DNA from: a virus
Lineage: Duplodnaviria > Caudoviricetes
IMG/VR virus record: IMGVR_UViG_3300033062_002302
DNA length: 64,000 bases
Direction: 5' to 3' (one strand)
Numbering within the stretch: the stretch's first letter is position 1; every line of letters starts with the position of its first letter. Shown here piece by piece: positions 38,585 through 64,000 of this stretch. The position numbers and the translations under genes are program-made. Under the pieces are notes generated by a model. It saw only the letters and a list, made by a program, of their open reading frames with translations. It did no database searches and was not told the DNA's origin.

Positions 38585-38589
38585 AATAG

Positions 38590-40069: not shown

Positions 40070-40074
40070 AAAGA

Positions 40075-40335: not shown

Positions 40336-40340
40336 ATCAA

Positions 40341-40739: not shown

Positions 40740-40740
40740 A

Positions 40741-43905: not shown

Positions 43906-44228
43906 TTATTAATTTCTTTCTCTTTTAGAGAATAAAGGGGAGGGATATTTGAAAGTATTATTTTCATTTCATCTTGAGATTTACTCAAATATGAAACTAT
44001 CAGATAATTTTCGTGCTGTATAATTCTAAATACTGATGAGTTTATCAAGTAAGTCCAATTTCTAAAGAAAGGATCGGAATCATTTATATAAATGAATGAT
44101 GTTTTATCTCCCATGCTATCTATTAATAATGGAATTACACAGTTATTACATCGTAAATAATAATTTGCTTTTGATAAGGGAATTTTGCATCTAGGACAAT
44201 CTTTAAAATTTAATTCACTTGTGTTCAT
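43875..44228 (-). CDS. CPRC zinc-ribbon / IFS-tail family protein
   Basis: CPRC..CNNC..ends ELILFS*. Confidence 0.8.
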   Translation of the reverse strand: MNTSELNFKDCPRCKIPLSKANYYLRCNNCVIPLLIDSMGDKTSFIYINDSDPFFRNWTYLINSSVFRIIQHENYLIVSYLSKSQDEMKIILSNIPPLYSLKEKEINNYIEELILFS

Positions 44229-44563
44229 GAAAATAATATAATTTGATTGATGTATTGATTTATTTCAATATCAGATAATAGATGAAGATTGGGATAATTT
44301 TTTATTTCAAATGGCATTTGAAAATATAGCTGATTATTTTTTGAAGGCGAAGAAATGGTAATTTTATCTTTATAAATGTGAAGATGGAATTTGTCGTTGG
44401 ACAAAGCAATTGCTGCCTGAAAAATGGATGGTTCAATTTCGTTAATTACATATAGCCAAGAAACGCCGTTAATTGTAGGGCAAGTCCAGCATGAACTATA
44501 AATGCCATCCATATCTAATGGATGTTTACATCTAGGACATTGTATTAAATTATAATAATTCAT
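44225..44563 (-). CDS. CPRC zinc-ribbon / IFS-tail family protein
   Basis: CPRC..CWTCP..ends QIILFS*. Confidence 0.8.
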   Translation of the reverse strand: MNYYNLIQCPRCKHPLDMDGIYSSCWTCPTINGVSWLYVINEIEPSIFQAAIALSNDKFHLHIYKDKITISSPSKNNQLYFQMPFEIKNYPNLHLLSDIEINQYINQIILFS

Positions 44564-44890
44564 CTACAAAAATAACAACAATCGCTCTATTGTTTTATTA
44601 ATTTGTTCATTTGAAAGGAGGTAGATGTCCTCTAAACTATTTGTTTCTAGAATTAGAGACTCACGTAGGTATTTTTTTATAAATATACTAGCTTTGTTTT
44701 GAGATACTTCAATTATAAACTTATCTGTTTGAACTTCATAACTTTCCCATGAAAGTTTCATTCTTATCCAAGATCCACTACCTTTATAACGAGTGCAAAA
44801 ATCATAATCACAATATGATTGATTTAATACGAATGACCATTTAAAAATATTATGGCACCGTGGGCAATGTGTAATTTGTTTAAAAATCAT
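44564..44890 (-). CDS. CPRC zinc-ribbon / IFS-tail family protein
   Basis: CPRC..CDYDFC..ends RLLLFL*. Confidence 0.8.
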   Translation of the reverse strand: MIFKQITHCPRCHNIFKWSFVLNQSYCDYDFCTRYKGSGSWIRMKLSWESYEVQTDKFIIEVSQNKASIFIKKYLRESLILETNSLEDIYLLSNEQINKTIERLLLFL

Positions 44891-45222
44891 TGAAAGATAA
44901 GAAGCTGCTCAACATAGCTATTGATTTCTTCATCCTCAAGAAAAGGAAGTTCTGTAATATCAATATTTTTTAATGCAGACTGAATGCTATATCCCCTATT
45001 TGTAATGTAAGTTTCTTCAAAATGATATTCAATTCTATATTTCGAAGAAAATAGAACAAAAACCCAATCACTATCATAGTTGTAGTTTTTATTTATATAA
45101 AGAAAATTTTCTGGACTATTATCAATCCAATAATAAACAAAGCAATTATTACATGTTAAAGACCGGTAAGTCATCTCTTCACGCATTGGAGCATGACATC
45201 TTGGACAATCAATTTTTATCAT
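44887..45222 (-). CDS. CPRC zinc-ribbon / IFS-tail family protein
   Basis: CPRC..CNNC..ends QLLIFQ*. Confidence 0.8.
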   Translation of the reverse strand: MIKIDCPRCHAPMREEMTYRSLTCNNCFVYYWIDNSPENFLYINKNYNYDSDWVFVLFSSKYRIEYHFEETYITNRGYSIQSALKNIDITELPFLEDEEINSYVEQLLIFQ

Positions 45223-45533
45223 TATGAAAATATCACTAATGCATCTATATAATCATAAATATGATCGTGAGTCATTAAGCTTAAATTAGGATGCTCAATT
45301 CCTTCAAGCGCAATAATTTCTAGATAATCATTAAACAATATTATCTTACCAAGACAATCAATTCTAATTGAATATTTAGAAGTGGTTATTTCGTAACTTT
45401 TGTCTGAAGTATTTATTACAAGCCAATTTCTGTATCTTATTGTCGGGCAATAAAGGCACCATCTAAATCCATAACCTTCATGTATTTGATTTAAACAACG
45501 AGGGCATTTAGTTAAACTAACTATCTCAAGCAT
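45222..45533 (-). CDS. CPRC zinc-ribbon / IFS-tail family protein
   Basis: CPRC..CLYCP..ends ALVIFS*. Confidence 0.8.
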   Translation of the reverse strand: MLEIVSLTKCPRCLNQIHEGYGFRWCLYCPTIRYRNWLVINTSDKSYEITTSKYSIRIDCLGKIILFNDYLEIIALEGIEHPNLSLMTHDHIYDYIDALVIFS

Positions 45534-47491: not shown

Positions 47492-47752
47492 TCACCAAAA
47501 CATTATTAATTTAATTTTCTCTTCAAATTCTTCTTGAGAGTTGCATTCAATGTATTTGCCGTGAAAATACCAAGCTTTATATCCATTAACATAATCAACA
47601 GCGGGACCGTCTAGCCTATGAAGCAGATCATTTTGCCACCAAGATCTGTCTCCATTAGAGTCTTCAATGGCAGGACCTCCTTCTCTATGAATCAGACCAT
47701 TTAAATAATGTTTTTTAGAGCCATAACCATCTATTATTAGACCATTTCTCAT
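47492..47752 (-). CDS. HRxDGPA-repeat protein (2 repeats), tail KLIMFW
   Basis: Start at ATG 47752, 5 nt after upstream stop. Confidence 0.8.
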   Translation of the reverse strand: MRNGLIIDGYGSKKHYLNGLIHREGGPAIEDSNGDRSWWQNDLLHRLDGPAVDYVNGYKAWYFHGKYIECNSQEEFEEKIKLIMFW

Positions 47753-47757
47753 ATTAA

Positions 47758-48267
47758 TTACCAAAACATTGCTAATTTAGGATTAATTATAGCTAAGAAT
47801 TCTTCTTGAGAAGAACATTTTATGTATTTGCCATGAAAAAACCAATCTTTACTTCCATCCGCCCATTCAATGGCTGGACCATCTAATCTATGAAGCTTTC
47901 CATGTTGATACCACCATTTAGTTCCGGAATCACATTCAGCAGCCGGTCCATCTAATCTATGAAATTTGCCATGTTGGTACCACTCTTTAGTTCCATCAGA
48001 GCGTTCAATGGCAGGACCATCTAACCTATGAAATTTACCATTTTGAAACCATTCTTTATCTCCATTGGCATATTCAATAGCAGGTCCGTTTTGCCTATGA
48101 AGTTTCCCATGACGATAATACTCTTTATAGTATAGAAAGGCATTTTCATTAAAATCATCTATGATGATGATTGCTGGACCATTATTTCTATGTAATCTTC
48201 CATTAAAATAATAACGCTTGTCTCCACAAGAATCAATTTTCAATCCGTGTCTTGTGCTTCGTTTCAT
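47758..48267 (-). CDS. HRxDGPA-repeat protein (5 repeats), tail NPKLAMFW
   Basis: Five HRx(D/N)GPA units with 23-aa period. Confidence 0.82.
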   Translation of the reverse strand: MKRSTRHGLKIDSCGDKRYYFNGRLHRNNGPAIIIIDDFNENAFLYYKEYYRHGKLHRQNGPAIEYANGDKEWFQNGKFHRLDGPAIERSDGTKEWYQHGKFHRLDGPAAECDSGTKWWYQHGKLHRLDGPAIEWADGSKDWFFHGKYIKCSSQEEFLAIINPKLAMFW

Positions 48268-50171: not shown

Positions 50172-50990
50172 ATGAGAAATGTATCTATTTTTTCAATTAT
50201 CGTCGCTGGCGCCGTTCTTTCATGCCGCAAATCCGAATCCAATGATATTAAACCCATTGAAAATATTGTTCTTAGTTCTAAACCAGAAGAGGCTAAAGAA
50301 CCTCCTCCGATTTGCGGAAACAATATGATTGAAGTTAAAGGCAATTATTGCCCTAATGTTGAACAAAATTGTTTAGAGTGGGACGAAAAGACAATCAATG
50401 TTAATGGCAAGGTTCGATGCCTACGTTTTGCCCCAAGTAAATGTTTATCTAAGACTCGTAAGTTTTTGAATTTTTGTATAGATACTTATGAGTTTCCAAA
50501 TCAAAAAGGAGCTATTCCGATTGTTATGATATCCTGGAATGACATGAAAAAGCTATGTGAAGACCAAGGAAAACGTATCTGCAAAGATTTTGAATGGGAA
50601 TTTGCATGTGAAGGCGAAGAGATGTTGCCATATCCATATGGTTTAAATAGAGATGCTACGAAATGCAATATTGATAAACCATGGATTCCTTTTGATAGTC
50701 AAAAGCTTTTCAACCCAAAGACTAGGGGAGAAGAAGTAGAACGATTATCTCAAAGAGTTCCTTCTGGCTCCATGGATTGCAAATCTCCATTTGGAGTCTA
50801 CGATATGACTGGGAACGTTGATGAATTTGTTGTTAATTCCAGCGGCTCTCCTTATAAGAGCGGATTAAAAGGTGGTCATTGGGCGTGGGGCGCTAGAAAT
50901 AGAGCTAGACCAGTTACATTGGCTCATGATGAGAATTTTGCTTTTTATGCTGAAGGCGGAAGATGTTGCCAGGATATTAATCATAAATGA
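50172..50990 (+). CDS. FGE-sulfatase (SUMF1/CLec-fold) domain lipoprotein
   Basis: Signal plus LSC lipobox; FCIDTYE, EWEFAC, YPYG, SPFGVYDMTGNVDE, GRCC. Confidence 0.82.
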   Translation: MRNVSIFSIIVAGAVLSCRKSESNDIKPIENIVLSSKPEEAKEPPPICGNNMIEVKGNYCPNVEQNCLEWDEKTINVNGKVRCLRFAPSKCLSKTRKFLNFCIDTYEFPNQKGAIPIVMISWNDMKKLCEDQGKRICKDFEWEFACEGEEMLPYPYGLNRDATKCNIDKPWIPFDSQKLFNPKTRGEEVERLSQRVPSGSMDCKSPFGVYDMTGNVDEFVVNSSGSPYKSGLKGGHWAWGARNRARPVTLAHDENFAFYAEGGRCCQDINHK

Positions 50991-51613
50991 CTTGGATAAA
51001 AGATTTTATTTCTAAAAAATGTCCTTTATGTGATTCTAGTTTAAATTTTAATTTCGTTTCCACTTCTAGAAAAGAAATTAAAACAATTGACGATCAATTA
51101 TTAATTAATTTCAAAACAGGATATTTTCCCGATCAAGGGAATTACCTTCAATTAAGCATTAATTATGAAAATCTTGATTTTGAAATCAATTCCTTTATTA
51201 AAGATAAAAAGGAATTGAAAATATCAATAGATAACGATCTTGATTATTGTAAAAGAATCTTTTTATATCCAGAAAATGGGGGAGTCTTTAATGGAAGATT
51301 TAAGCCTTGGAAATTATTTTCAGGTTCTTGCAAATGCCTTAGCTACTATATAGAGTCTAGTACACTTTCTTTTTGTTCAAAAACAGGAAAAGTAGAATCA
51401 AGTTTACTCCCTACTCTTTCAGAGGTATTTAGTCTTTCAACCTCAAAAACTAATTATAAATTAATTAATAATTACAAAAACAATAATAGCGAATTGATTT
51501 ATCAAGGAGCTGATCTTTTAGATTGTTTAAAAGTCGAAAATCTTCCTATTTTAACTTTCGAAGACAAAAACGATCTAATTAAAAGATTAGAGACGATTAC
51601 AGTTTTTTCATAG
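50987..51613 (+). CDS. Long variant of CxxC / IFS-tail family
   Basis: CPLC, CKC, ends DLIKRLETITVFS*. Confidence 0.7.
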   Translation: MTWIKDFISKKCPLCDSSLNFNFVSTSRKEIKTIDDQLLINFKTGYFPDQGNYLQLSINYENLDFEINSFIKDKKELKISIDNDLDYCKRIFLYPENGGVFNGRFKPWKLFSGSCKCLSYYIESSTLSFCSKTGKVESSLLPTLSEVFSLSTSKTNYKLINNYKNNNSELIYQGADLLDCLKVENLPILTFEDKNDLIKRLETITVFS

Positions 51614-52130: not shown

Positions 52131-52769
52131 ATGAAGTCTATTAAGCATCTTTCTAATAAAATCAATTGTTTCTTCAAGCTTGCCGAAAAAGAAGAGCTTC
52201 CTGAAAATTCAGATGATCTTGAAACGGTCCTGAAAAACCTTTCAGAGTTAGAGACCTTTACGGCTCGGGTTGATTATGCTGAAAAGAATCTCAAACATCT
52301 TTCTTCTGGTTCTTCTCGGGTCGTTTATCTTGTAGATGATGGCAAGCAGGCTATGAAGTTGGCTAAAAATGATCGGGGCATTTCCCAAAATAAGATTGAA
52401 TCTAAGATAAAATCTAAATTCATTAATGAAACAACCAAGTTTGATAAAGATGGCGTTTGGAAGCTTTCGCCTTTCTTAGACAAGATTACAGAAAAGGAAT
52501 TTGAAAAATTAATTGGAGTTAATTTTAAAGATTTTGGGAAAGCTTTGGATTATGGACTTCAAGATGTTAGCGATGATTCTGCCGCTAAACCCAAAGACTT
52601 CAATAAAATTAAAGAGCTTCCGATTTATAAAGAATTGGTTGCCGTTGGTAAAAAACATAAATTAATGCCTGGAGATATGTCTCGCATTAGTTCTTGGTGC
52701 ATGAAGGATGATGTTCCTATGCTAGTTGATGCCGGGCTAACTAAAGAAATATATGATGAATTCTATTGA
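52131..52769 (+). CDS. Protein kinase-like fold protein
   Basis: GSSRVVY loop, MKLA, NKIE, GDMSRISSW, LVDAG. Confidence 0.6.
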   Translation: MKSIKHLSNKINCFFKLAEKEELPENSDDLETVLKNLSELETFTARVDYAEKNLKHLSSGSSRVVYLVDDGKQAMKLAKNDRGISQNKIESKIKSKFINETTKFDKDGVWKLSPFLDKITEKEFEKLIGVNFKDFGKALDYGLQDVSDDSAAKPKDFNKIKELPIYKELVAVGKKHKLMPGDMSRISSWCMKDDVPMLVDAGLTKEIYDEFY

Positions 52770-53326
52770 AACTTAAAGAAACACATTGCCCAATATGTTC
52801 TAAAGAGTTAGAAATCAAATGTCATTTGATTTTTGATTATTTTTATTGCAATTCTTTTGAATGCTCTTCAGAAAAAGAAGGAAATCTTTTAAAGAGAGTT
52901 AATTATAAATTAGTGACAGACTATATGACTTCTGATGTTGAAATTGATTTAATGTCAGGAGCTTTTAAGTTTAATGTTATCGAAAATAACTTTCCTGATT
53001 CCAAACTTAGCGATTCTACTGCAATAATGGCACTGAATAATTATTCAGTAAATCTTTTTCAAGAATGTGATGAGTGCGAGTATATAATTAATTATAATTA
53101 CTTTAAATTTGATTCATTACTATTTAAAATTAATAAAATATCAGTTTGGAGCGAACAAATTAATCTTAAGAATTATAAGATATATAATGATTTTAAAGCG
53201 GGAAAGACTCATTTATATTTTAATGATAACGACACTGATAGTAACGTCAAATCATTTGATGAAATTTTTGATTTTAAAAAAAATAATCCAGAGCGCTGGA
53301 TTAAGGAGCGTTTAATTTTTGGCTAA
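52766..53326 (+). CDS. Long variant of CxxC / IFS-tail family
   Basis: THCPIC..CNSFEC..CDEC, ends IKERLIFG*. Confidence 0.7.
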   Translation: MKLKETHCPICSKELEIKCHLIFDYFYCNSFECSSEKEGNLLKRVNYKLVTDYMTSDVEIDLMSGAFKFNVIENNFPDSKLSDSTAIMALNNYSVNLFQECDECEYIINYNYFKFDSLLFKINKISVWSEQINLKNYKIYNDFKAGKTHLYFNDNDTDSNVKSFDEIFDFKKNNPERWIKERLIFG

Positions 53327-53347: not shown

Positions 53348-53875
53348 TTGCATTTCAATATGATTCGTCATACTCTGTTTTTAGCCTTTTTTCTATTTCT
53401 AGCCATTAATTGCTCCTCTATTGTCTGGGTTCCAAACCTTTATAATGAGGTTTCATTTGGAGATAATTTTACAGATGAAGAGCGTTATCGAGCTTTAATT
53501 GGCTTTAATCTTTGGAAAAGGGAAACTGGATGCAAGGTAGATTTTGTTGAAGTTCCAGATGGCGGAATTAGAATAAGAAAAGCAACTGATGAAGAAATGG
53601 CTCGATTTGATCGAGAACAAAAAAAGAAAGTTGTTGGTTTAGCCGTTAAAAACGTTCAAGTTCCTTTTATTTATTTTGTTTTTCAAAGGATTAATAGCTT
53701 AGATGAGCTAGAATTAGTCGCCGCTCATGAGGCAGGGCATCACCTAGGAATGGAGCACGTTCCTCAAAATCAAATTGCTATTATGAATCCATCTTTAAAT
53801 AACGCTCTCATTAATGACCAGCATTTAACGAGTTACGATATGGATCAGTTTGACTCTTATTGGCGTTGTAGATAA
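53348..53875 (+). CDS. Matrixin-like (metzincin) exported metalloprotease
   Basis: Hydrophobic N-terminus with Cys; HEAGHHLGMEH; Met-turn AIMNP. Confidence 0.82.
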   Translation: MHFNMIRHTLFLAFFLFLAINCSSIVWVPNLYNEVSFGDNFTDEERYRALIGFNLWKRETGCKVDFVEVPDGGIRIRKATDEEMARFDREQKKKVVGLAVKNVQVPFIYFVFQRINSLDELELVAAHEAGHHLGMEHVPQNQIAIMNPSLNNALINDQHLTSYDMDQFDSYWRCR

Positions 53876-54409
53876 TTGAATCAATATACAATTAAAGATT
53901 ATATCAATTACGTTTCTTCATCTTGCAAATTTTGCGATGAAAAAATTAATATATATTTGTTATATGATGCTAAGCATATTAAGGCAGAAAAAATTGTTGA
54001 TGACAAATTAGTATTTGTTATTAAAAAATATAAGTTAAAACCTATAACTTATATTAAGTTTGACCTTAAGACAAATATGTGGGTTAGTTCATTTAAAATG
54101 TTAGAAAATAAACCAATGTCATTAAGCCTTGCTTGTAAAGAAGGCTGCTCTGTATTTTCAACCTCATATTTATCTTTTGATGATAAAAGGGCTCTTCCTT
54201 TAACTTCTGCTTTTGAAAGCATGCGAGTCATAATAGATGGGTCTGTATTTATTGTAAATTCTTATAATCTAGATAATGATCCAAAAACATATTTTAGACA
54301 AAATGATTTCAACTCACATTATAGACAGATAGACTTATTACTAATGTCTTCTTGGAAAGATAAACAAACTCTGATTGATATTATCAAAACAAACTTAATA
54401 TTTACTTAA
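53876..54409 (+). CDS. Long variant of CxxC / IFS-tail family
   Basis: CKFC..CKEGC, ends IIKTNLIFT*. Confidence 0.7.
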   Translation: MNQYTIKDYINYVSSSCKFCDEKINIYLLYDAKHIKAEKIVDDKLVFVIKKYKLKPITYIKFDLKTNMWVSSFKMLENKPMSLSLACKEGCSVFSTSYLSFDDKRALPLTSAFESMRVIIDGSVFIVNSYNLDNDPKTYFRQNDFNSHYRQIDLLLMSSWKDKQTLIDIIKTNLIFT

Positions 54410-55037
54410 ACTCAGGCGTATTACAATAGTTTAAGTCTTTAAAGGTTAAATTATTAATGGTCGCAATCTGCATGACAGTGATATTATCAACGCATCCAAC
54501 TTGACGTTTCCCATAAAATGGGTACATAAGGCTTGGGATATTGACATGGTGGGCGCCGAGAGCATGACCAAACTCATGAAGGAGAATTTTTCTCATATCT
54601 TTATAGCCCATTCGATCTCTGATAACGACCATTAAATTAGCTCGTTCTCCAAGTCCATTGACATAAGCCAGGGTTCCATCATATTCTTCAATATTATCTT
54701 CGACCAAAGGATCGTCATGATTGATGCCAATAATAACGATTCCTTCGTGAGTTTGCATTATTTGCTTGCTAAGGTACCGAAGAGCCTTAGTATTAGTGTG
54801 GTCGATGGCATTTGGCTCAATTTTAAGAATTATTTTTTTATTGAGAACATAATTCCATTCGGCGACGACAGATTCAATTGTTTTTAATTCTTGAGAGCCA
54901 AAAGAGCTGTCAATATACAGCGGTTTTATGTTATAATTAACATTTTCAGTCTCAAAACCAGCATATTTATAATCTTTAACACAGCCCAGCAAAAAGGTTA
55001 AAGAAACCAAAAAGCCAAATAAAAACAATTTCTTCAT
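54402..55037 (-). CDS. Matrixin-like (metzincin) lipoprotein metalloprotease
   Basis: LLGC lipobox; HEFGHALGAHH; Met-turn SLMYP; SD GGAGG. Confidence 0.85.
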   Translation of the reverse strand: MKKLFLFGFLVSLTFLLGCVKDYKYAGFETENVNYNIKPLYIDSSFGSQELKTIESVVAEWNYVLNKKIILKIEPNAIDHTNTKALRYLSKQIMQTHEGIVIIGINHDDPLVEDNIEEYDGTLAYVNGLGERANLMVVIRDRMGYKDMRKILLHEFGHALGAHHVNIPSLMYPFYGKRQVGCVDNITVMQIATINNLTFKDLNYCNTPEFK

Positions 55038-55086: not shown

Positions 55087-55473
55087 ATGCTTCAGACGTC
55101 TTATAAAGATGTTTTTGACCTTATCCCAAAGAATTGTTTAGAGTGTGAATCAGGACTACAGAGTCAGCTTCTTGATCGAAACCAAATATATTATAGTTGC
55201 GACAACAGATCTTGCCAGTATGATTCAACTTATTATTTCACAATAAATAAAAATATTGGATATCTTCCAGATTATTTCAATTTAGAGTTAGACGAAGAAT
55301 GTCAAAAAGATTATAATTCAAGAACTTTATTTACATATGTATTTTATAATAAAAATTTAATATTAAAAAAGTTAAACGATCAATTGTTTTATGAAAAAAT
55401 AGATTTAAATGTTAATTGGAAAAGCAAGCAAGACATTCTTGCGGCTATTAAGGAAATTTTAATATTTTCATGA
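55087..55473 (+). CDS. CxxC / IFS-tail family protein
   Basis: CLEC..CDNRSC..ends EILIFS*. Confidence 0.78.
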   Translation: MLQTSYKDVFDLIPKNCLECESGLQSQLLDRNQIYYSCDNRSCQYDSTYYFTINKNIGYLPDYFNLELDEECQKDYNSRTLFTYVFYNKNLILKKLNDQLFYEKIDLNVNWKSKQDILAAIKEILIFS

Positions 55474-55805
55474 AGTTATGCCCTAGATGTAATTCTGCTC
55501 TTGAAAAAGCTTCCAAAGGACACTCATTGGCTTGTTACAATTGTCCTAAAGTTATAGCCAAAGATGGATTCCAATATCATTGGATGTATTATATGATTGG
55601 ATCTAATTCAATACATTTAGTATTAGAAAAATTTAATTTTTATTTAATAATCAATCCTGACTCGCCTAATCTAGCTGAGATTACAGAACATCCAGGAATA
55701 GCTTGTTCTTTAAGGTATACTACCATTAGTATACCATTAGATTTGCTTTCGAAGACACAAGAGCAGATTGATGCTTACATAAATCAAGTTTTGATATTTC
55801 AATGA
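55470..55805 (+). CDS. CPRC / IFS-tail family protein
   Basis: CPRC..CYNCP..QVLIFQ*. Confidence 0.8.
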   Translation: MKLCPRCNSALEKASKGHSLACYNCPKVIAKDGFQYHWMYYMIGSNSIHLVLEKFNFYLIINPDSPNLAEITEHPGIACSLRYTTISIPLDLLSKTQEQIDAYINQVLIFQ

Positions 55806-56116
55806 ATTTAAAATCTATAACACATTGTCCAAGATGTAATATCACATTAACCATCTATAAAAATTCTGGCGGTAGAGGCTGCCAAAATTGTCCATTAATA
55901 CCATACGAAGATAACGTATCTTGGATTTATATTAATGAAGACAACTCTTATTTTGAGATCGGTCATACAGCTTATCCTGATTATTGGTTTAGCTCTAACA
56001 CTAACGATCTTGTTGTAATTAATGACGTAATATCATACAATGTAAACGAATCAATGATTTATATGTCTGATGATGAGATAGCCAATATTATTAAAACCAT
56101 ATTAGTATTTAAATAA
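55802..56116 (+). CDS. CPRC / IFS-tail family protein
   Basis: CPRC..CQNCP..TILVFK*. Confidence 0.8.
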   Translation: MNLKSITHCPRCNITLTIYKNSGGRGCQNCPLIPYEDNVSWIYINEDNSYFEIGHTAYPDYWFSSNTNDLVVINDVISYNVNESMIYMSDDEIANIIKTILVFK

Positions 56117-56117
56117 C

Positions 56118-56441
56118 ATGAATATAACTCATTGTCCAAGATGTAATTCTGAACTAAAGAACTATAGCGACCATTATCTTATATGCTTAAATTGTCCTTT
56201 AACTTCTAGTCGTTTTTGGTGTGAATGGAGCAGAAGAAATTATTGGTATAGCCTTTATACTAAAAAATATTGGATTATACACTGTTTAGACCTTAATGAT
56301 AATTATAGATATATTATTTACGATAATAATAATGCTGGAATTGGTTCCTTCCCGGAAATTCCAATATCTAGTACGCCACTTTACCTTCTTTCAGATAATG
56401 AAATTGACACTTACATTGATTCATATTTAATATTTTCATGA
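56118..56441 (+). CDS. CPRC / IFS-tail family protein
   Basis: CPRC..CLNCP..SYLIFS*. Confidence 0.8.
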   Translation: MNITHCPRCNSELKNYSDHYLICLNCPLTSSRFWCEWSRRNYWYSLYTKKYWIIHCLDLNDNYRYIIYDNNNAGIGSFPEIPISSTPLYLLSDNEIDTYIDSYLIFS

Positions 56442-56779
56442 CCATTCCTTTTATTACACATTGTCCTCGATGTCAAAACGAACTTACACGATATAATTCT
56501 TATTGGTTACAATGCAATTGTCGCATAGAAATAAACAAAGCAGGACATGCTTGTAGTTGGCTTTACGTGACAGATCCAAATACCAGCACAGAAGGGTTGC
56601 AAGAAAAATGGCTAGATATTCATATTTATTACAATAATTATTGGATATTGTGGGCAGATCAACGTCTGAGAAATTCAGAGACTTACAAAGATTATAATGT
56701 TTATGTTCCAAATAATATTTATCTTTTTTCAGATCAAGAGCTTGATACATTCATTAAATCAAACTTAATATTTTCATGA
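56438..56779 (+). CDS. CPRC / IFS-tail family protein
   Basis: CPRC..CNC..SNLIFS*. Confidence 0.8.
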   Translation: MTIPFITHCPRCQNELTRYNSYWLQCNCRIEINKAGHACSWLYVTDPNTSTEGLQEKWLDIHIYYNNYWILWADQRLRNSETYKDYNVYVPNNIYLFSDQELDTFIKSNLIFS

Positions 56780-57087
56780 ATTTATCTTTTCCAATCACGC
56801 ATTGTCCTAGATGCCAAAGTGATTTGCAGCCATATCCAGACTCTATGTTAAAAAACAGTGATTGGTTGCAGTGCATTGGCTGCGTTGATGATTTTGATAT
56901 TTATATTAATAATGAGACTAAAGATTTGCAAATTCGTTACAACAATTATTGGTTTCTTCTAGAAGAACAAGAAATTGAGAACGTTTCAACAGGAAGCTGT
57001 TACAAAACAAATTTTGATCTCAGCATTTGTTTCTATTCTAGCCGTCAATTAAATGACTTGATTAAAGCGGTATTAATTTTTTCATAA
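56776..57087 (+). CDS. CPRC / IFS-tail family protein
   Basis: CPRC..CIGC..AVLIFS*. Confidence 0.8.
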   Translation: MNLSFPITHCPRCQSDLQPYPDSMLKNSDWLQCIGCVDDFDIYINNETKDLQIRYNNYWFLLEEQEIENVSTGSCYKTNFDLSICFYSSRQLNDLIKAVLIFS

Positions 57088-57100
57088 CCATAAGGCGACC

Positions 57101-57445
57101 ATGAACTGTCATCAATGTAAAACAATATTAACCTTAAATGAAAATGCTTCGCATCTTTCTCGTGTCAAAGTCTATACTTGCTCAAATTGTCCATTGATTG
57201 AATCAGTCTTCGCAGAAGACGAATGCAACGAAATGACTAATAAAACGTGGTATTTGTCAGAAAATAGGTGGAGCTTAATTGCTAGAAATTACTTGGTAAA
57301 TAGGAAATTTCCAACTGAACGAGACTCTTATATTATGTTGCCTGACCACTCTAAAGTGTATTACGAAGCCGCTCCGTCTCTTCCTGCAAAAAAAAAAGAA
57401 GAAGAGATAGAGCAATATATTAAAGAGGTTTTCATATTTCAATGA
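57101..57445 (+). CDS. CxxC / IFS-tail family protein
   Basis: CHQC..CSNCP..EVFIFQ*; SD TAAGG. Confidence 0.8.
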   Translation: MNCHQCKTILTLNENASHLSRVKVYTCSNCPLIESVFAEDECNEMTNKTWYLSENRWSLIARNYLVNRKFPTERDSYIMLPDHSKVYYEAAPSLPAKKKEEEIEQYIKEVFIFQ

Positions 57446-57747
57446 ATTGTCCTAGATGCTCTACGGCTTTCTCAAAAAGGGAGCGACATGTATATGATGT
57501 CTGTTTAAACTGCCCTAAAATTTCACATGATTCTTTTTTAGATTATTGGATCAATTGGTATGGCAAAGATCACTACAATGTAATTTCTTCAAAAACCACA
57601 GGCATTATCGTTTATTTTAAAGATGAATCAATGTTACTGATACCTCATTCTAATATTAGAATTAATCTAACTATAGAGTCTGATTTTTATAAAAGGTCTG
57701 ATGAAGAAATCGGCAATTTCATTAAGGAGATTTTAATTTTTAATTAA
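57442..57747 (+). CDS. CPRC / IFS-tail family protein
   Basis: CPRC..CLNCP..EILIFN*. Confidence 0.8.
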   Translation: MNCPRCSTAFSKRERHVYDVCLNCPKISHDSFLDYWINWYGKDHYNVISSKTTGIIVYFKDESMLLIPHSNIRINLTIESDFYKRSDEEIGNFIKEILIFN

Positions 57748-57760
57748 AACCAGTCCGATC

Positions 57761-57791
57761 TTGACAAGGCGGAATTACGTCTTATTATAAT
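57761..57791 (+). promoter_or_regulatory. Sigma70-consensus promoter inside the array
   Basis: TTGACA(57761) with TATTAT at 16-nt or TATAAT at 19-nt spacing, in the largest gap of the array. Confidence 0.7.
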
Positions 57792-57804
57792 TGGATAGCA
57801 TTAC

Positions 57805-58134
57805 ATGACGACTATATTTCCGATCACGCATTGTCCTAGATGTCAAAATTTATTGACAAGACCTTTATTGTTAAATGACATTACTGATTGGAGCACCTGT
57901 AATTTTTGCCCAGACATCTTTGTTCCTAGATATAAGAAAAATTTTTACATCAACAATGCTACCAACGATTTTAGTATTAACACTTCAAAATTTTATATTC
58001 ATAAAAAAATAGGCTATGTTTACGATGATTTACTTAAAAAGGTTTATTACTTTAATATTCCTGATAGTTTAATACTATCAAAAACAAATGAAGAAATAGA
58101 CGAAGTTATTCTTGGATTAATTATATTTTCATGA
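57805..58134 (+). CDS. CPRC / IFS-tail family protein
   Basis: CPRC..CNFCP..GLIIFS*. Confidence 0.8.
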   Translation: MTTIFPITHCPRCQNLLTRPLLLNDITDWSTCNFCPDIFVPRYKKNFYINNATNDFSINTSKFYIHKKIGYVYDDLLKKVYYFNIPDSLILSKTNEEIDEVILGLIIFS

Positions 58135-58475
58135 AAATAACACATTGCCCTAGATGTAAGAACGCGCTCTTGTTTGATGAAATATGGACGGATTGGTTTT
58201 GCCAATCATGTCCTTTAATTGATTATAGGCGTTGGTGCGTTTGGGATGATGATGGAAAGTCATATGATATGGCTACTGATTTATTTACAATAAACCATTC
58301 CGTCGATTTATTCTCTAAAAAAGAATTAACGAAAATTTATCGTAGCTCTCTAAATGATTATGCTGAAGAAGCATTGCTTTTTACATTAACAAACTCTCAT
58401 GATATGAAAGATTTATATTTGCAATCCAATGATTATATTAATGAGCTAATTAAAAAATTAATTATATTTTCATGA
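58131..58475 (+). CDS. CPRC / IFS-tail family protein
   Basis: CPRC..CQSCP..KLIIFS*. Confidence 0.8.
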   Translation: MKITHCPRCKNALLFDEIWTDWFCQSCPLIDYRRWCVWDDDGKSYDMATDLFTINHSVDLFSKKELTKIYRSSLNDYAEEALLFTLTNSHDMKDLYLQSNDYINELIKKLIIFS

Positions 58476-58819
58476 ACAATTGTTATCCAACATATTGTCC
58501 TCGCTGTCATGTTTCATTTGTTAGCACTAAATATTTTAGTGAGATGTATTATTCGGGTTTTATTTTGACCTGTAAAACTTGTATGCCTCCGGATAAAAAA
58601 TATAATGGTTATTCTTGGATTGAATTCTATTCACATTCGTTCGTTCTTAGAACTAATATATTTTATATCAAATGTTATGACAATCGAATTGTAATTCGAT
58701 ACCGATATTGTTCGAGTGTTTTATTGACTTATAACATTGATTCTTGCCCGCTTTTTCTTTTAAATTTCTCCAATGACAAACTAAATGAATTCGTCAATCA
58801 ACTCCTTATCTTCTCTTGA
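58472..58819 (+). CDS. CPRC / IFS-tail family protein
   Basis: CPRC..CKTC..QLLIFS*. Confidence 0.8.
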   Translation: MNNCYPTYCPRCHVSFVSTKYFSEMYYSGFILTCKTCMPPDKKYNGYSWIEFYSHSFVLRTNIFYIKCYDNRIVIRYRYCSSVLLTYNIDSCPLFLLNFSNDKLNEFVNQLLIFS

Positions 58820-59129
58820 TTATCCAAATCATTGTCCGAGATGTCAAACCAATTGGAACAATTCCTCATTTGGAACTTGTTTCCTTAATTGTCCGAGAAT
58901 ATCTGGTTATTGTTGGCTTTATTTATACATCACTCATATTTCAATTAGAACCAATTATTATCATATTATAATTCTTAATGAATTTTCAACCAAATCTGAT
59001 GTCTACTCATTAAATATGAATGATGACAGATTAATTGCTCAAATTACAATTGAAGACCCAATAAAGTTTATGTATCTCTCTAATGACGAAATTAATGCCG
59101 CTATCCTGCCAATGGTTATTTTCTCATGA
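58785..59129 (+). CDS. CPRC / IFS-tail family protein (start uncertain)
   Basis: CPRC..CFLNCP..PMVIFS*; only in-frame ATG lies inside the upstream gene. Confidence 0.7.
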   Translation: MNSSINSLSSLDYPNHCPRCQTNWNNSSFGTCFLNCPRISGYCWLYLYITHISIRTNYYHIIILNEFSTKSDVYSLNMNDDRLIAQITIEDPIKFMYLSNDEINAAILPMVIFS

Positions 59130-59458
59130 TTACAGCTTGCCCTCGGTGCCAAGCTCCTTTGGCTCTGCTGCCATTTTCTCATTTTTTATATTGTCCTGCC
59201 TGCCCTAATATTCAAATAAATTTCAAAGAAAGATTTTGGTGCTATTGGAGTCCTTCAGGCGATTTTTATGAAGTGATAACAAATAAGTATGCAATCACTA
59301 AAGATAATATAGATCTCCCCGATGAATATGAAGTCTATTTTGAAACTAAATTGGGGACTAAAAAATTGAAATTAAATTTATCAAACGCTCCAATTCTTTA
59401 CCTATTGTCATCATCTCAAATAGATGACTTAATAGATTCACACATTATTTTCTCATGA
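59126..59458 (+). CDS. CPRC / IFS-tail family protein
   Basis: CPRC..CPACP..SHIIFS*. Confidence 0.8.
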   Translation: MITACPRCQAPLALLPFSHFLYCPACPNIQINFKERFWCYWSPSGDFYEVITNKYAITKDNIDLPDEYEVYFETKLGTKKLKLNLSNAPILYLLSSSQIDDLIDSHIIFS

Positions 59459-59778
59459 CAAATTGTCCACGCTGTCAAACAATATTGCATATTAACATTT
59501 ATCACGCTAGGTGCATTAAATGCCCTACGGTTCGCGGAAATTATTGGTGTGAATGGAAAGTTAATAATAAACAAGATATTATTCCTGAGCGTTATTTTCT
59601 AGAAACCAAACTTTTTGCAATATATTTTTGTTGGAATGAAGGAGAAGTTCCAACCTACAATATTTTTGATTCTAAATATCGCATATTATTAAGCGGTGTA
59701 GAGCTAGCTCCAGATCTTTATCTTCTTAAGGATGAACAAATTAATGATATAGTTAATTCTCTTATTATTTTTTCATGA
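59455..59778 (+). CDS. CPRC / IFS-tail family protein
   Basis: CPRC..CIKCP..SLIIFS*. Confidence 0.8.
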   Translation: MTNCPRCQTILHINIYHARCIKCPTVRGNYWCEWKVNNKQDIIPERYFLETKLFAIYFCWNEGEVPTYNIFDSKYRILLSGVELAPDLYLLKDEQINDIVNSLIIFS

Positions 59779-60101
59779 CAAAATGCCCTCGATGCCATCA
59801 TAATTTAAAATTTAATTCATGCTTTGCTGAATGTCAAAATTGCCCTAAAATATGCGAACGGTCTTGGTGCGTTTGGAATGTAGAATCTAATTTAATTAAA
59901 CCAGAACAATATGAACTGCGAACAAACTTATACACGATCCTCTTCTCATCTTACCGATTTCACGCCAATAATAAATATTCATATGATATTTACGATTTAA
60001 ATTTTAAGTCAATGTTTGAAAAAGAACTGCCGTCAGGTCTTTATCTTCTCTCAAATGACCAAATTAACGATATGATTAAAACTCTTATTATTTTCTCATG
60101 A
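59775..60101 (+). CDS. CPRC / IFS-tail family protein
   Basis: CPRC..CQNCP..TLIIFS*. Confidence 0.8.
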   Translation: MTKCPRCHHNLKFNSCFAECQNCPKICERSWCVWNVESNLIKPEQYELRTNLYTILFSSYRFHANNKYSYDIYDLNFKSMFEKELPSGLYLLSNDQINDMIKTLIIFS

Positions 60102-60433
60102 TAAAAAATTGCCCTAGATGCGATCAAATATTAACACTTAATCAATCCGGACATATTGAATGTAATAATTGCCCTAAAACCTTTGATGGGTATTCATGGT
60201 GCGAATGGGTGCCAGACCAAAATAATGCTACAACAGAACGTTATTATTTAGATACCGATCTTTTCTCTATCTATTATCATTCACATAATGAAATAACAAA
60301 CGTTCCAAATTATAGCATTCATGCTTCTGACTATAAACTTCTTTTATACAAAATCAATCTTCCTACAGATCTTTATCTTCTTCCAGAATCTGAAATAAAC
60401 AAATTTATAAATTCATTGATAATATTTTCATAA
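60098..60433 (+). CDS. CPRC / IFS-tail family protein
   Basis: CPRC..CNNCP..SLIIFS*. Confidence 0.8.
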   Translation: MIKNCPRCDQILTLNQSGHIECNNCPKTFDGYSWCEWVPDQNNATTERYYLDTDLFSIYYHSHNEITNVPNYSIHASDYKLLLYKINLPTDLYLLPESEINKFINSLIIFS

Positions 60434-60753
60434 TGACTAATCCTATTACTCACTGCCCCAGATGTAAAAATAAGCTCGTTCCTTCTTGGGATGATAAATA
60501 TGCTTGGCTAGAATGCAATAGTTGTCCTAGGATTGAAAAATCAATAGCTGGTAACAATGAAAGTTGGTTGTCCATTGATCATAAACAGGAAGAATTTCAA
60601 ATACTTTGTTATCAATATCCTGATTTTTATTTTCAATGTAATCCCCCTTTAATAAAAGACGCAAATATTTATTATCATTCCGATAAGCCACTCTATTTTC
60701 TTTCAGACCAAGAATTAGCTGAGTTAATAAAAACAACTCTTATATTTTCATAA
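60433..60753 (+). CDS. CPRC / IFS-tail family protein
   Basis: CPRC..CNSCP..TTLIFS*. Confidence 0.8.
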   Translation: MTNPITHCPRCKNKLVPSWDDKYAWLECNSCPRIEKSIAGNNESWLSIDHKQEEFQILCYQYPDFYFQCNPPLIKDANIYYHSDKPLYFLSDQELAELIKTTLIFS

Positions 60754-61088
60754 TGCCATTCCCTATCACTCACTGTCCTAGATGCCAATCAGCTCTTATT
60801 AACCCTTTCCCTGCGTTTCCTGGCTCGTTTATTTGTGATTACTGCCCTAAAATTTCAAATAAAAATACCAGCTACGAAACTAACAGTGGAGAAGATTCTT
60901 GGTTATGGGTTGACAATAATAATAAGAATTATGAAATTACCTGTAATGAAGGGTGGCTCGCTTACCAAGCACAAGCCTATAATACTTGGGATGATAAAGA
61001 AATAAAGGTTCAAATCCCTGAAGATTTTTATCTTTCTTCAGAAGAGGAAATCAGCTTTTTTATTAAACAACTTTTGATATTTTTATGA
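60753..61088 (+). CDS. CPRC / IFS-tail family protein
   Basis: CPRC..CDYCP..QLLIFL*. Confidence 0.8.
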   Translation: MPFPITHCPRCQSALINPFPAFPGSFICDYCPKISNKNTSYETNSGEDSWLWVDNNNKNYEITCNEGWLAYQAQAYNTWDDKEIKVQIPEDFYLSSEEEISFFIKQLLIFL

Positions 61089-61447
61089 ATAACACATTCC
61101 CAACTCATTGCCCTAGATGTCAAAATGAAATTAAAGACATTAGAGAGGCAACTAAATCATATTTCTGCTTATCTTGCGCTAAAGCAAATTCTTATATTTG
61201 GTCTGAATGGAGTTCTATTCCGAATAATAATTATTGTAAATTAATAACAAATAAATTTATTATTATAAGATTATATAATGACCTTGATTACTACTGTAAT
61301 ATTTATTACAATAATAATCGTAATGGGTTCCCTTCCTGGGAAGAAGATCATATTCAAGGCATGATCATTCATAATATTTTTGATTTATTTTTTATGACGG
61401 AAGATGAAATTAATGCCTTTGTCGCTCAATTATTAATTTTTTCCTAA
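61085..61447 (+). CDS. CPRC / IFS-tail family protein
   Basis: CPRC..CLSC..QLLIFS*. Confidence 0.8.
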   Translation: MNNTFPTHCPRCQNEIKDIREATKSYFCLSCAKANSYIWSEWSSIPNNNYCKLITNKFIIIRLYNDLDYYCNIYYNNNRNGFPSWEEDHIQGMIIHNIFDLFFMTEDEINAFVAQLLIFS

Positions 61448-61785
61448 TGACAATCCATTTTTCCGACTTCCCCAAGCAATGTCCCCGTTGCCAAACGGAT
61501 TTGACGCCTTATATGTTAAATAGCCTTTGTTGCCCCGCCTGCCCCAAAATTAAGATTCGTTTCGGCGATATCCCATGGTGTTTCTGGAGAACAAATCAAG
61601 ATTTATATTTTATAATAACAGGAACATATAAAGTATATGTAAGTTCAAATACTCTTGAAGTCAGAACACGTTCTGACAATAAATCATTGTTTTCCAATTA
61701 TCAATTTTGTCCTGATATCGCTCTTTACCTTTTGTCTGATATTGAAATCGACAATCTTATCAATCAATATTTAATATTTTCATGA
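61447..61785 (+). CDS. CPRC / IFS-tail family protein
   Basis: CPRC..CPACP..QYLIFS*. Confidence 0.8.
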   Translation: MTIHFSDFPKQCPRCQTDLTPYMLNSLCCPACPKIKIRFGDIPWCFWRTNQDLYFIITGTYKVYVSSNTLEVRTRSDNKSLFSNYQFCPDIALYLLSDIEIDNLINQYLIFS

Positions 61786-62120
61786 TTGAATATCCCGATA
61801 AATGCCCTAGATGCTCTAAACCTTGGCTTCTCCAATCTTTAAGTCTTGGAAATGTTTATAGCTATGAACGATGCTATCAATGTCCAAGTGTATATAATGA
61901 TCATTCTTGGATTTATGGTTATCAAGACCAAATATCAGTAAGAACACACAATTATCATATTATTATTTTTGAAAGTGGAAATTGTCATGTTTCTCTAATA
62001 TCGGGTCATAATAATTACAATAAAATCATATTGTCTTTTAAATATGACCCTCTTGAGTTTATTTGTTTGACTGAATCTAATATGGATTTACTCATTAATG
62101 AATTGTTAATATTTTCATGA
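61782..62120 (+). CDS. CPRC / IFS-tail family protein
   Basis: CPRC..CYQCP..ELLIFS*. Confidence 0.8.
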   Translation: MIEYPDKCPRCSKPWLLQSLSLGNVYSYERCYQCPSVYNDHSWIYGYQDQISVRTHNYHIIIFESGNCHVSLISGHNNYNKIILSFKYDPLEFICLTESNMDLLINELLIFS

Positions 62121-62145
62121 ACTTATATTTAAGTCATTATCCTAA

Positions 62146-62508
62146 ATGTTAGAAAAAATTCCAAAATATTGTCCTCGATGTCAAGCAAAATTTGTAGCCT
62201 TGTCTAACACGCTTCAATGTAATGAGTGTCCGCTTATTCATGGCGATGTATGGTGTCGCTTTAGAATAGATGGTCCTGACTATTTTTCTTGGGTTATTAA
62301 AACCGAAAAATATTTAATTTATCAATATCCACAATATCCATTTAGCATTTTCAATTCTTTAATAATTTATACCTACATTCCTAAAAATAATCATTATTCT
62401 CATTATAGTAAAGATCTTAAATTAAACGAGTTTACGCCAGCTCTTTATCTCTTGATGTCGAATGAAGATATTAATCTTTTTATAGATTCTCTCTTGATTT
62501 TTTCATGA
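62146..62508 (+). CDS. CPRC / IFS-tail family protein
   Basis: CPRC..CNECP..SLLIFS*. Confidence 0.8.
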   Translation: MLEKIPKYCPRCQAKFVALSNTLQCNECPLIHGDVWCRFRIDGPDYFSWVIKTEKYLIYQYPQYPFSIFNSLIIYTYIPKNNHYSHYSKDLKLNEFTPALYLLMSNEDINLFIDSLLIFS

Positions 62509-62849
62509 ACCCAACTTCCTATTATCCGCATCCAAGCGCTTGCCCTCGTTGCCAATCTTCTTGGGTGCCAGAATATCCCGATTTCCCATCTTCTTCTGCA
62601 TTGATTTGTCTAAATTGTCCAAAGGCAGTTGATGGCAATAATTGGCTTTATATCTATCGAGAGCGAATCTCTTTGCGAACAAATTTATGGAGAATCAAAT
62701 ATTATAAAGATAATTGGTTTCATATTACTAAAGCTACAAGTCCTTGGCAGTTAATCTTTTCTTTAAAGTTAGAAACTAATATTGATTTCATCTCTCTTTC
62801 TAATAATTAAATCAATGAAATAATTGAATCTTTTCTTATTTTCTCATAA
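62505..62849 (+). pseudogene. CPRC / IFS-tail family member with in-frame nonsense codon before the tail
   Basis: TAA at 62808-62810; frame continues INEIIESFLIFS* to 62849. Confidence 0.8.
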
Positions 62850-62855
62850 TTTCAT

Positions 62856-63176
62856 ATGCTTTCCAATTATCCGCCAAACTGCCCACGATGCAACCAGCCA
62901 TGGTTTTTGTATGAAGGCTTCGACTGCTTCTGCTGCAATCATTGTCCCAAGATTAAAAATGAGTCTTACTATGTTTATCTTTTTAACTCTGGGGCATCCA
63001 TAATGACAAATCTTTATCGTGTAGAAACATACTTTAAGAGTAATACTTCATTAATTTATAGGACTTCTAATAACGAATTAATCGCCAATAAGCTAACCTT
63101 AGATCCATTAACCATACTCAACTTATCCAATGACGAAATTAATGCTTTTGTCGAGTCTCTTTTAATCTTCTCTTAA
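62856..63176 (+). CDS. CPRC / IFS-tail family protein
   Basis: CPRC..CNHCP..SLLIFS*. Confidence 0.8.
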   Translation: MLSNYPPNCPRCNQPWFLYEGFDCFCCNHCPKIKNESYYVYLFNSGASIMTNLYRVETYFKSNTSLIYRTSNNELIANKLTLDPLTILNLSNDEINAFVESLLIFS

Positions 63177-63182
63177 TTCAAA

Positions 63183-63560
63183 ATGAATAATTGTTTTTTA
63201 TCATTTCCCGATCAATGCCCGAGATGTAATTCTCGATGGGTAAATACAGCTAAAGACGGTTATAGTTTAACCTGTTCAATCTGCCCATATGTTAATGTAA
63301 ATGGACATTTATTTCTTTGGGTCCAATTAACAAAATTGAGGATGTCCTTAAGAACCAACATCTTCACAATTACTACATCAAACCAATATATTCCTACAAC
63401 AAAACGTTATTTAGATTCAAGAGATTCGGTTGTTGTCTATCATCGAGACCATCTTTTACCACGTTCAATCATTTCTCCTGTCGATCCCCTTATTTTCCTA
63501 AATGCCTCTTCCAACGATGAATTAAATGACTTGGTCAAATCCTTCCTCATCTTCTCATAA
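63183..63560 (+). CDS. CPRC / IFS-tail family protein
   Basis: CPRC..CSICP..SFLIFS*. Confidence 0.8.
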   Translation: MNNCFLSFPDQCPRCNSRWVNTAKDGYSLTCSICPYVNVNGHLFLWVQLTKLRMSLRTNIFTITTSNQYIPTTKRYLDSRDSVVVYHRDHLLPRSIISPVDPLIFLNASSNDELNDLVKSFLIFS

Positions 63561-63894
63561 TTTAATTCCAACTTCATGTCCAAGATGTAATAGTCCATGG
63601 ACAAATTATAATGCCAATATAGAATCAACCAATAGAGTTTTACAATGTTCGCTTTGCCCGAAAATAAGTCAAGGCGGGGTTTTTAACTTGCCATGGGCAA
63701 CTCTTACTACAAATTATATCACTATTAGAACGGAGATTTATAATATCTTCTTTGATTGGGAAGATCAAAGAAGTGATTTATATAAAGAAAGCTTTCCTGT
63801 TCTTCTTAATCAAAACATTAATATTATTAAGTTATTGCATCTTTCCAACGATCAAATAAATGTTGAAATCAATACCTTAATTATCTTTTCATAA
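63526..63894 (+). CDS. CPRC / IFS-tail family protein (start uncertain)
   Basis: CPRC..CSLCP..TLIIFS*; only in-frame ATG lies inside the upstream gene. Confidence 0.7.
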   Translation: MTWSNPSSSSHNLIPTSCPRCNSPWTNYNANIESTNRVLQCSLCPKISQGGVFNLPWATLTTNYITIRTEIYNIFFDWEDQRSDLYKESFPVLLNQNINIIKLLHLSNDQINVEINTLIIFS

Positions 63895-63903
63895 TTCTTT
63901 ATC

Positions 63904-63986
63904 ATGACTCTACCGATCAATTATCCGACCGTTTGCCCAAGATGCCAATCCAGCCTATCCGCCTATAAAGGCGCCAGTTGGCTTTG
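63904..63986 (+). CDS. CPRC family member, 3' partial
   Basis: MTLPINYPTVCPRCQSSLSAYKGASWL then runs into adapter. Confidence 0.8.
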
Positions 63987-64000
63987 AGATCGGAAGAGCA
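63987..64000 (+). other. Illumina adapter read-through (technical artefact)
   Basis: AGATCGGAAGAGCA matches the start of the TruSeq adapter. Confidence 0.93.

Follow-up and report, generated by a model that had tools for sequence, protein, structure and literature searches.

The last 64,000 nucleotides of the IMG/VR virus record IMGVR_UViG_3300033062_002302 (Duplodnaviria; Caudoviricetes), hereafter the window, end in a tandem array of small genes whose products appear, judging from their sequences, to form an undescribed and rare family of zinc-binding proteins without a solved or named relative. The record has 239,327 bp, a CheckV completeness of 56%, and is classed as linear. It carries at least 35 copies of the family: 26 ORFs of the array, one that is cut, and eight on the minus strand. 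Their common plan is an N-terminal CPRC..CxxCP zinc ribbon, a variable beta-rich core, and a 16-residue C-terminal module ending in LIFS. Structure modelling confidently predicts a single compact domain, in which the ribbon is followed by a six- or seven-stranded antiparallel beta-meander and closed by the C-terminal helix. The family is old and maintained, and we tentatively read it as an old repertoire of protein-binding modules.

The array comprises 26 successive plus strand ORFs of 101–128 amino acids that span positions 55087-63894. A preliminary description of the window had presented it as an unbroken 27-gene tandem array. This is correct for the 26 back-to-back ORFs and for the start of a 27th one, but the latter is cut and the array runs off the end of the fragment, its completeness not being established. 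A profile constructed from 32 members yields 34 matches across the 239-kb record and none elsewhere in it (E 1e-14 to 1e-27 for complete copies). The eight further copies that the preliminary description had assigned to two minus-strand clusters were found at 36704-37757 (three) and 43875-45533 (five). It had also noted that nearly all frames are intact in spite of their divergence: 33 of the 35 members are whole, the other two being one with an in-frame TAA and the one cut by the record end.

Domain architecture and predicted fold

Only the four cysteines of the ribbon (C5, C8, C23, and C26) and the penultimate phenylalanine are invariant columns among the 32 members, while the proline and arginine of the CPRC motif are kept in 31 of them. 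Pairwise identity between members has a mean of 26% and a maximum of 47%. The ribbon has the features of a generic zinc ribbon, with two CxxC-type knuckles spaced by 12–22 residues (10–25 being expected) and short flanking strands in the model. All segments between anchor residues vary in length (standard deviation 2.8–5.0), save the one that runs from the capping serine of the last helix to the C-terminus, which is 16 residues long in 32 of 32 members. The aromatic content is 14.4% in the family versus 10.2% in the other ORFs. The fixed ribbon and tail, the low mean identity, and the richness in aromatic residues agree with the initial picture of constant ends around a W/Y/F-rich, barely alignable core.

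The conserved Cys, Pro, Arg, and Phe residues are encoded by synonymous codons in genome-like proportions. This free choice of codons indicates that selection acts on the protein and not on the DNA, and it argues against DNA-level conservation or gene conversion as the source of the constant ends, an explanation that was rejected. The final serine is the exception: its codon is TCA in 23 of 26 cases because the TCA-TGA sequence carries the ATG of the next gene.

The structure of the member encoded at 59126-59458 was predicted with AlphaFold2 using an alignment of the 32 paralogues as input (pLDDT 92.9; pTM 0.82). The model has short ribbon hairpins, strands within residues 29–84, and a helix at residues 96–107. 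Conserved hydrophobic positions of the strands (W38, 39, 41, 48, 50, 57, 68, 70, and Y71) alternate with highly variable ones. Sequence entropy is 2.2 bits in the strand core and 3.3 bits at non-core strand positions, with a mean of 1.8 bits over the last 16 residues. The C-terminal helix is amphipathic: an S-x-x-E cap is followed by hydrophobic residues at i, i+3/4, and i+7/8 and then by Ile-Phe (I99, I103, L106-I108, and F109), the pattern expected of a helix lying on a sheet. On the basis of the model, we read the two constant ends as probable clamps of one compact domain and the core as a meander whose inner face would be conserved while its outer face and loops would be free. The fixed scaffold with a variable surface that had been postulated for these proteins is supported by the confident model, the alternation of conserved and variable strand positions, the variable loops, and the constant 16-residue tail.

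The predicted fold has no close counterpart among the structures compared. Foldseek against the PDB returned nothing at E ≤0.001. A VIA-align comparison with 48,161 chains gave Z values that are all below 5, the best being 4.9 (rmsd 3.7, 66 residues). A second structural look was led by polo-boxes with Z ~4 (best, Cdc5 polo-box: Z 4.2, rmsd 3.1 over 65 residues), which is in the range of chance arrangements. In the ESM Atlas all shape matches were below TM 0.5 and all feature matches below 0.9. The model matches ~15 uncharacterised proteins of 96–134 amino acids in BFVD (Foldseek probability up to 0.99, TM ~0.5, identity 11–19%, E ≥0.02). Their neighbouring accessions (A0A6J5R... series) are unannotated and labelled “uncultured Caudovirales phage”, which suggests, from shape comparison, that a small fold of this kind is present in many copies in another phage as well.

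The ending of the family is shared with other proteins of the record. A hydrophobic-hydrophobic-Phe-x terminus is found in 61 of the 302 ORFs of the record, compared with 1.35 expected. It belongs to 36 ORFs of the zinc-ribbon type and to 25 of a second, MORN-like family. The latter has ~25 ORFs in the record with a length of 63–169 amino acids and features 1–5 HRxDGPAIE..G.K.WY units followed by a C-terminal helix that ends in ..KLAMFW (SQEEFEEQIKLAMFW). Its copies in the window lie at 23250-24245 (+), 38051-38928 (-), 39809-40778 (-), and 47492-48267 (-), more being present elsewhere in the record. The structural model of a MORN-like protein (pLDDT 91) has MORN1, MORN4/Myo3a, and junctophilin as best PDB matches, with probability up to 1.0 and an E-value of only 6e-3, while Pfam provides only a weak match to DUF6745. 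Two MORN-like copies at the far end of the record carry the zinc-ribbon-type ending ..AELIFS and one in a related metagenome contig (L010, see below) ends in ..IIIFS. Three small adjacent ORFs at 26502-27318 (108, 87, and 77 amino acids), which belong to no family, have a looser helix-plus-Phe end (..LLKEFI, ..TLQAFL, and ..KLRQFL).

A common origin of the zinc-ribbon and MORN-like families is not supported by their profiles: the hhalign probability is 0.7% and only a 10-residue helix aligns. The zinc-ribbon proteins also lack the MORN repeat signature (a hairpin of ~23 residues with G-x-W/Y..G). The models of the two families share many weak structural neighbours, one chain being matched at Z 4.9 by the zinc-ribbon model and at Z 4.6 by the MORN-like one. 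The tail helix is more likely a structural cap common to two sheet-plus-helix domains. Improbable in our judgement, but worth weighing, is that the C-terminal helix and its hydrophobic-hydrophobic-Phe-x end form a transferable tag that works in trans, for docking, sorting, packaging, or degradation, and is recognized by one shared partner, the zinc-ribbon and MORN-like proteins being cargo or adaptors. The excess of this ending across two families without detectable homology beyond the helix, the zinc-ribbon-type ending of some MORN-like copies, the fixed tail length, and the presence of both tails together on other phage contigs speak for such a signal. So does the known ability of MORN sheets to bind helices in their groove, the MORN4/Myo3a and junctophilin entries being among the structure matches. 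However, both models place the helix on the protein's own sheet (pLDDT of the last block 89 and 78) and its hydrophobic pattern is the one expected when an amphipathic helix is buried. The S-x-x-E cap is common to helices in general, and the final serine owes its TCA codon, in the 23 of 26 cases mentioned above, to the TCATGA overlap. No clamp was found in the 239 kb, though one control of that search was negative. The full version of this alternative, in which two unrelated families would together provide about 60 or more proteins, one in five of the genes in the 239 kb, as plugs docking in trans on one hub, is slightly less probable again. The helix-binding groove of the MORN-like proteins, a capsid-loading site, or a protease could be the hub. 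If true, the trans-acting plug would be a combinatorial adaptor or effector-delivery system of a kind undescribed in phages.

Relatives, age and proposed function

Searches in Pfam, PHROG, NCBIfam, and PADLOC gave no family match beyond sub-threshold matches to the ribbon. Among the named zinc-ribbon families of Pfam (Zn_Ribbon_TF, Zn_ribbon_TFIIB, Zn_ribbon_6, and others) the best score was 17.9 bits, against a cut-off of 25, and concerned the first ~30 residues only. A sequence profile search of the PDB likewise produced ribbon-only matches with E ≥0.003. The profile searches that the preliminary description had recommended as a check thus associate these proteins with no characterised (housekeeping) family. 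No match was found by tblastn and megablast in 50,697 phage records (Bacillus phage G was included for tblastn). Pattern searches of IMG/VR and of 185,579 species genomes detected no relative, the patterns being narrow and this result weak evidence of absence. A word-indexed search retrieved one non-self protein only. An exhaustive profile search of 1.84 billion protein cluster representatives identified 70 proteins, 31 of which are, by exact or 100% identity, the window's own (26 exact and five from later starts). About 30 are full-length relatives with at most 45% identity, and the rest are unrelated multi-ribbon proteins.

Every relative that was traced sits in a tandem array on a phage-like metagenome contig. 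Six members are found at the very end of a 100-kb contig (L001), three in L003/L004, eight on a fragment of an 80-kb contig, alongside EF-Ts, Cpn10, and HNH genes (L007), and five, accompanied by divergent ones, on another 100-kb contig (L010). L009 has a single profile match; the three genes next to it have the CxxC start and the tail in common with the family. MORN-like proteins with an end of the ..AMFW type are also encoded on L007 and L010. It is possible that L001 and L010 represent opposite ends of a single contig; no overlap was found at a circular L010-L001 junction. Several of the relative-bearing pieces derive from one JGI sample, as does an identical piece of the window array. No member of the family is present in the two IMG/VR phages that are nearest by their UvsW-like helicase (64% and 58% identity; 361 and 354 kb), while the same query yields 34 matches in the window's record. 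These two phages carry at most a few weak MORN-like proteins. The absence of members from these phages indicates that the expansion is confined to a narrower lineage.

Two observations on these contigs are recorded here. Past its six members (35% G+C), L001 shifts at L001:2106-11345 to 45% G+C; ORFs are sparse there and a ..GMIILNA.. element, of peptide or DNA, recurs. The contig may be chimeric or include a very different genome region. In the sister contigs, precomputed Pfam labels at L010:5237-6778, L007:2269-3192, and 4076-4354 report a GH5 cellulase with CBM2, a PARG-like protein, EF-Ts, and Cpn10.

The closest paralogue pairs of the record have a dS of 1.5 or saturated and a dN of 0.4–0.5 (NG86). 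In a maximum-likelihood tree, in which many forks are weakly supported, the terminal branches have a median of 0.93 changes per site. Members of L001 interleave with those of the window while most of those of L007 form a separate clade, and some subfamilies appear to be shared with another phage contig. Saturated dS, long end branches, intact frames, and the presence of relatives elsewhere lead to the conclusion that the family is old and maintained. The term “maintained” had been used in the preliminary description and is appropriate: 33 of 35 frames are intact at 24–47% identity, dN is well under the saturated dS, and relatives exist on other phage contigs. The premature stop in one copy and the very high divergence could also be taken as signs of decaying, functionless duplicates. 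This is very unlikely, as 33 of 35 frames remain open in DNA with 31% G+C at up to saturated dS, structural residues are kept with free synonymous codon choice, and relatives are kept in other phages.

The epithets “diversifying” and “hypervariable”, if taken in an active sense, are not supported. Recent duplicates are lacking (protein identity reaches 47% at most between any two copies), the end branches are long, some subfamilies are apparently shared, and no reverse transcriptase (RVT_1) match was found in the 239 kb of this 56% complete record, the control being positive in three genomes. Among copies from other samples, differences amount to one base at most. The hallmarks of a diversity-generating retroelement, a reverse transcriptase gene with near-identical template and variable repeats, were not found in the 239 kb, although a reverse transcriptase may lie in the remainder of the genome.

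We propose that a single family of small proteins would have expanded long ago, and in a lineage-specific manner, within a clade of large uncultivated phages. The zinc ribbon and the fixed-length amphipathic helix would hold the meander, whose outward face and loops would differ between copies. An N-terminal hydrophobic stretch or signal peptide is absent from the proteins, most of which are acidic (median pI 5.6; mean net charge -2.4; pI >8 in only 5 of 34), and aromatic residues are abundant. Their most likely role is accordingly that of cytoplasmic protein-binding modules, every copy having a target, or a variant of a target, to itself. Such a standing set of binders would function in the manner of a homogeneous polyimmunity locus or of a block of host-takeover genes, with host or rival proteins as presumed targets. 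Co-transcription, binding as the function, and the host or rival origin of the targets are parts of the scheme that we infer. The preliminary description had been more specific in suggesting anti-defence or host-range proteins, but no link to virion, tail fibre, or defence systems was found with PHROG and PADLOC.

Several points weigh against a repertoire of protein binders. In any small domain, relaxed constraint would equally leave the outward positions variable, and zinc ribbons often bind nucleic acids. The nearest described case, a family of Bacillus phage G, was proposed to consist of transcription factors or DNA-binding proteins (PMC7824862). The window family could by analogy bind nucleic acids, its members being a set of specific transcription factors or of structural DNA-binding proteins. 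In addition to the phage G family, which has the same layout, this assignment draws on the ribbon being the best-conserved part of the protein and on weak sequence matches to the ribbon modules of RNA polymerase subunit M/TFS-type proteins and of PacI. We consider it rather unlikely. The acidity of most members argues against a general DNA-binding role, no basic position is conserved besides the arginine of CPRC, the profile match to phage G is restricted to the ribbon (31 columns, probability 57.6%), and the genome exhibits no recurrent intergenic DNA motif.

Large capsids can hold many internal proteins, and the family might supply virion components, either decoration proteins or packaged and ejected internal proteins in many antigenic or functional variants. 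In the window record, L001, and L010 the arrays are located directly at a contig end or close to one, which would be in line with this role. Assembly breaks within paralogue arrays explain those ends equally well, though, and the arrays sit among nucleotide-metabolism and accessory genes, not among structural genes. The absence of a PHROG or BFVD match to a structural protein contributes to making a virion role quite unlikely. Taken together, a fixed scaffold, a free face, acidic and aromatic-rich proteins, and dozens of long-kept copies fit a repertoire of protein binders best.

Gene layout and genomic context

The 25 junctions of the array include 14 ATGA overlaps and three TAATG ones, so that 17 overlap by one or four bases. 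No Shine-Dalgarno-like sequence precedes the internal starts of the array, and a search for a recurrent intergenic promoter or DNA motif across the genome found none. The head-to-tail arrangement of stop and start codons suggests that the array genes are probably co-made from polycistronic messages by coupled translation.

Member 1 (55087..55473, +; 128 amino acids) is divergent: CLEC replaces CPRC in its CLEC..C..C ribbon and its tail is ..EILIFS. It was left out of the 32-member profile, which misses it, and its match to a local profile that contains it is circular. ATGA or TAATG junctions characterize members 2–6 (55470-55805, 55802-56116, 56118-56441, 56438-56779, and 56776-57087, all +). 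Members 7, which has CHQC, and 8 follow at 57101-57445 and 57442-57747 (+). The widest gap within the array (57 nt, 57748..57804, +) then holds a promoter-like TTGACA-16-TATTAT sequence at 57761-57788, a match to the consensus only, which does not by itself indicate a function. Members 9–21 occupy 57805..62120 (+), with starts at 57805, 58131, 58472, 58785, 59126, 59455, 59775, 60098, 60433, 60753, 61085, 61447, and 61782. They are followed by member 22 (62146..62508, +) and by the interrupted member 23 (62505..62846, +; ORF 62505-62810). The single in-frame TAA of the latter (62808-62810) replaces the Asp/Glu of other copies and the frame then runs on through the INEIIESFLIFS tail, making it a probable recent pseudogene or truncated form. 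Members 24–26 lie at 62856-63176, 63183-63560, and 63526-63894 (+). Member 27 (+) starts at ~63904 and is cut at 63986 by the record end, leaving its N-terminal 27 residues (MTLPINYPTVCPRCQ...).

The two minus-strand clusters, defined from the ORF listing and the profile, consist of three members at 36704-37036, 37033-37392, and 37389-37757 (-) and of five at 43875-44228, 44225-44563, 44564-44890, 44887-45222, and 45222-45533 (-). More distant sequences are found upstream of the array. A two-module relative of 186 amino acids (52766..53326, +) has two profile matches (residues 3–83 and 90–185; E 6e-5 within the genome) and ends in ..ERLIFG. A distant relative of 208 amino acids (50987..51613, +) has a CPLC start, the tail ..ETITVFS, and a weak E-value of 0.027. 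An ORF of 177 amino acids (53876..54409, +) with an N-terminal CKFC and the tail ..TNLIFT is a possible distant relative by motif only, its E-value of 0.9 not being significant.

Directly after the record end, inside member 27, positions 63987-64000 are occupied by the 14 bases of the Illumina adapter AGATCGGAAGAGCA, which is trimmed off in the genome copy of the 239-kb record. An identical JGI metagenome contig of 6.6 kb (L005) stops in the adapter AGATCGGAAGAGCA at the same base. This shared stop inside member 27 may mark either a break in the assembly or an end of the DNA. No continuation of the cut gene is present at the far end of the contig, and the record has no terminal repeats. The same proteins are also recorded on a longer contig of 283 kb. 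Sequence beyond the record end, sought by exact pattern in viral and metagenome collections, gave no match.

The gene content of the record is of the large tailed-phage type and includes a TubZ-like tubulin, UvsW-like and DnaB-like helicases, an intein-bearing PhoH, ribonucleotide reductase, and glycosyltransferases. The TubZ/PhuZ-like tubulin gene is located at 8304-9635 (Pfam Tubulin and TubZ-like_C). Three genes of the window, at 20717-23230, 40741-42927, and 6178-8277, are intein carriers: a PhoH/PIN protein has an insert of the LAGLIDADG-type homing endonuclease (Pfam), an NAD-dependent dehydratase matches Intein_splicing (Pfam), and an IMP-dehydrogenase-like ORF of 728 amino acids has an intein-like insert, judged by reading alone. 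The three genes directly upstream of the array (50172-50990, 53348-53875, and 54402-55037 (-)) encode leaders that are hydrophobic, end in Cys, and resemble lipoprotein signals. Among the proteins, one is FGE-sulfatase-like and two are small matrixin-like (M10) zinc peptidases with an HExxHxxGxxH motif. Such lipoprotein-like FGE-sulfatase and M10 peptidase genes are unusual phage cargo.

Comparison with known systems

To our knowledge, jumbo phages repeatedly spend several per cent of their genome on arrays of diverged small paralogues, and we know of no function for any of them. The family of the window is a new one within this known kind, the lineage-specific expansions of small proteins of jumbo phages. 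It is a clean case for study, since it combines a confident fold prediction without solved relative, a scaffold that can be separated from the variable face, at least 35 natural variants in one genome with more on sister contigs, and a second family with a similar tail. If its members bind host or rival proteins, they would represent a natural library on a zinc-stabilised scaffold of 110 residues and a route to new targets of the phage-host conflict. If they are not binders, the family still fills a gap in the annotation of phage proteins.

At the level of the fold, the model can be compared with binders made of a single-sheet meander (MORN1, MORN4, junctophilin, the SET7/9 N-domain, the CPAP G-box, and polo-boxes), in which an antiparallel meander is likewise crossed by one helix. 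These folds have no zinc ribbon and all comparisons remained at Z <5.

At the level of the locus, homogeneous polyimmunity loci are composed of tandem, closely spaced, distantly related paralogues (SUKH, Imm6, Imm11, and similar; Zhang et al. 2012, PMC3482391). The array has the same layout, with 26-27 genes on one strand, 17 of 25 junctions overlapping, and 24–47% identity. Both arrangements display same-strand tandem spacing of one small binding domain and can be read as a pre-emptive repertoire produced from one message. Polyimmunity loci are, however, bacterial and their families are tied to known toxins, whereas the locus described here belongs to a phage and to a new family. No toxin-type neighbour was found in the window, L001, L003, L007, L009, or L010, and no NCBIfam, Pfam, or PADLOC match assigns its proteins to an immunity family. 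The polyimmunity locus may thus serve as a working analogy only.

Bacillus phage G has an expansion of ~35 zinc-ribbon copies, which Iyer et al. 2021 interpreted as transcription factors or DNA-binding proteins (PMC7824862). Our comparison is based on five phage G members. The similarity detected by hhalign covers the 31 ribbon columns given above and does not extend to the whole protein, and the phage G tail (..YWKENDRYL..) is unrelated to the LIFS tail of the window family. Descent of the whole domain from a common ancestor is not established by the sequences. The two expansions are nevertheless alike in belonging to jumbo phages and in having tens of tandem or clustered copies of ~100–118 amino acids with a CPxC..C..C N-terminal ribbon, a divergent middle, and a conserved C-terminal helix, and the phage G expansion appears to be the closest case described so far.

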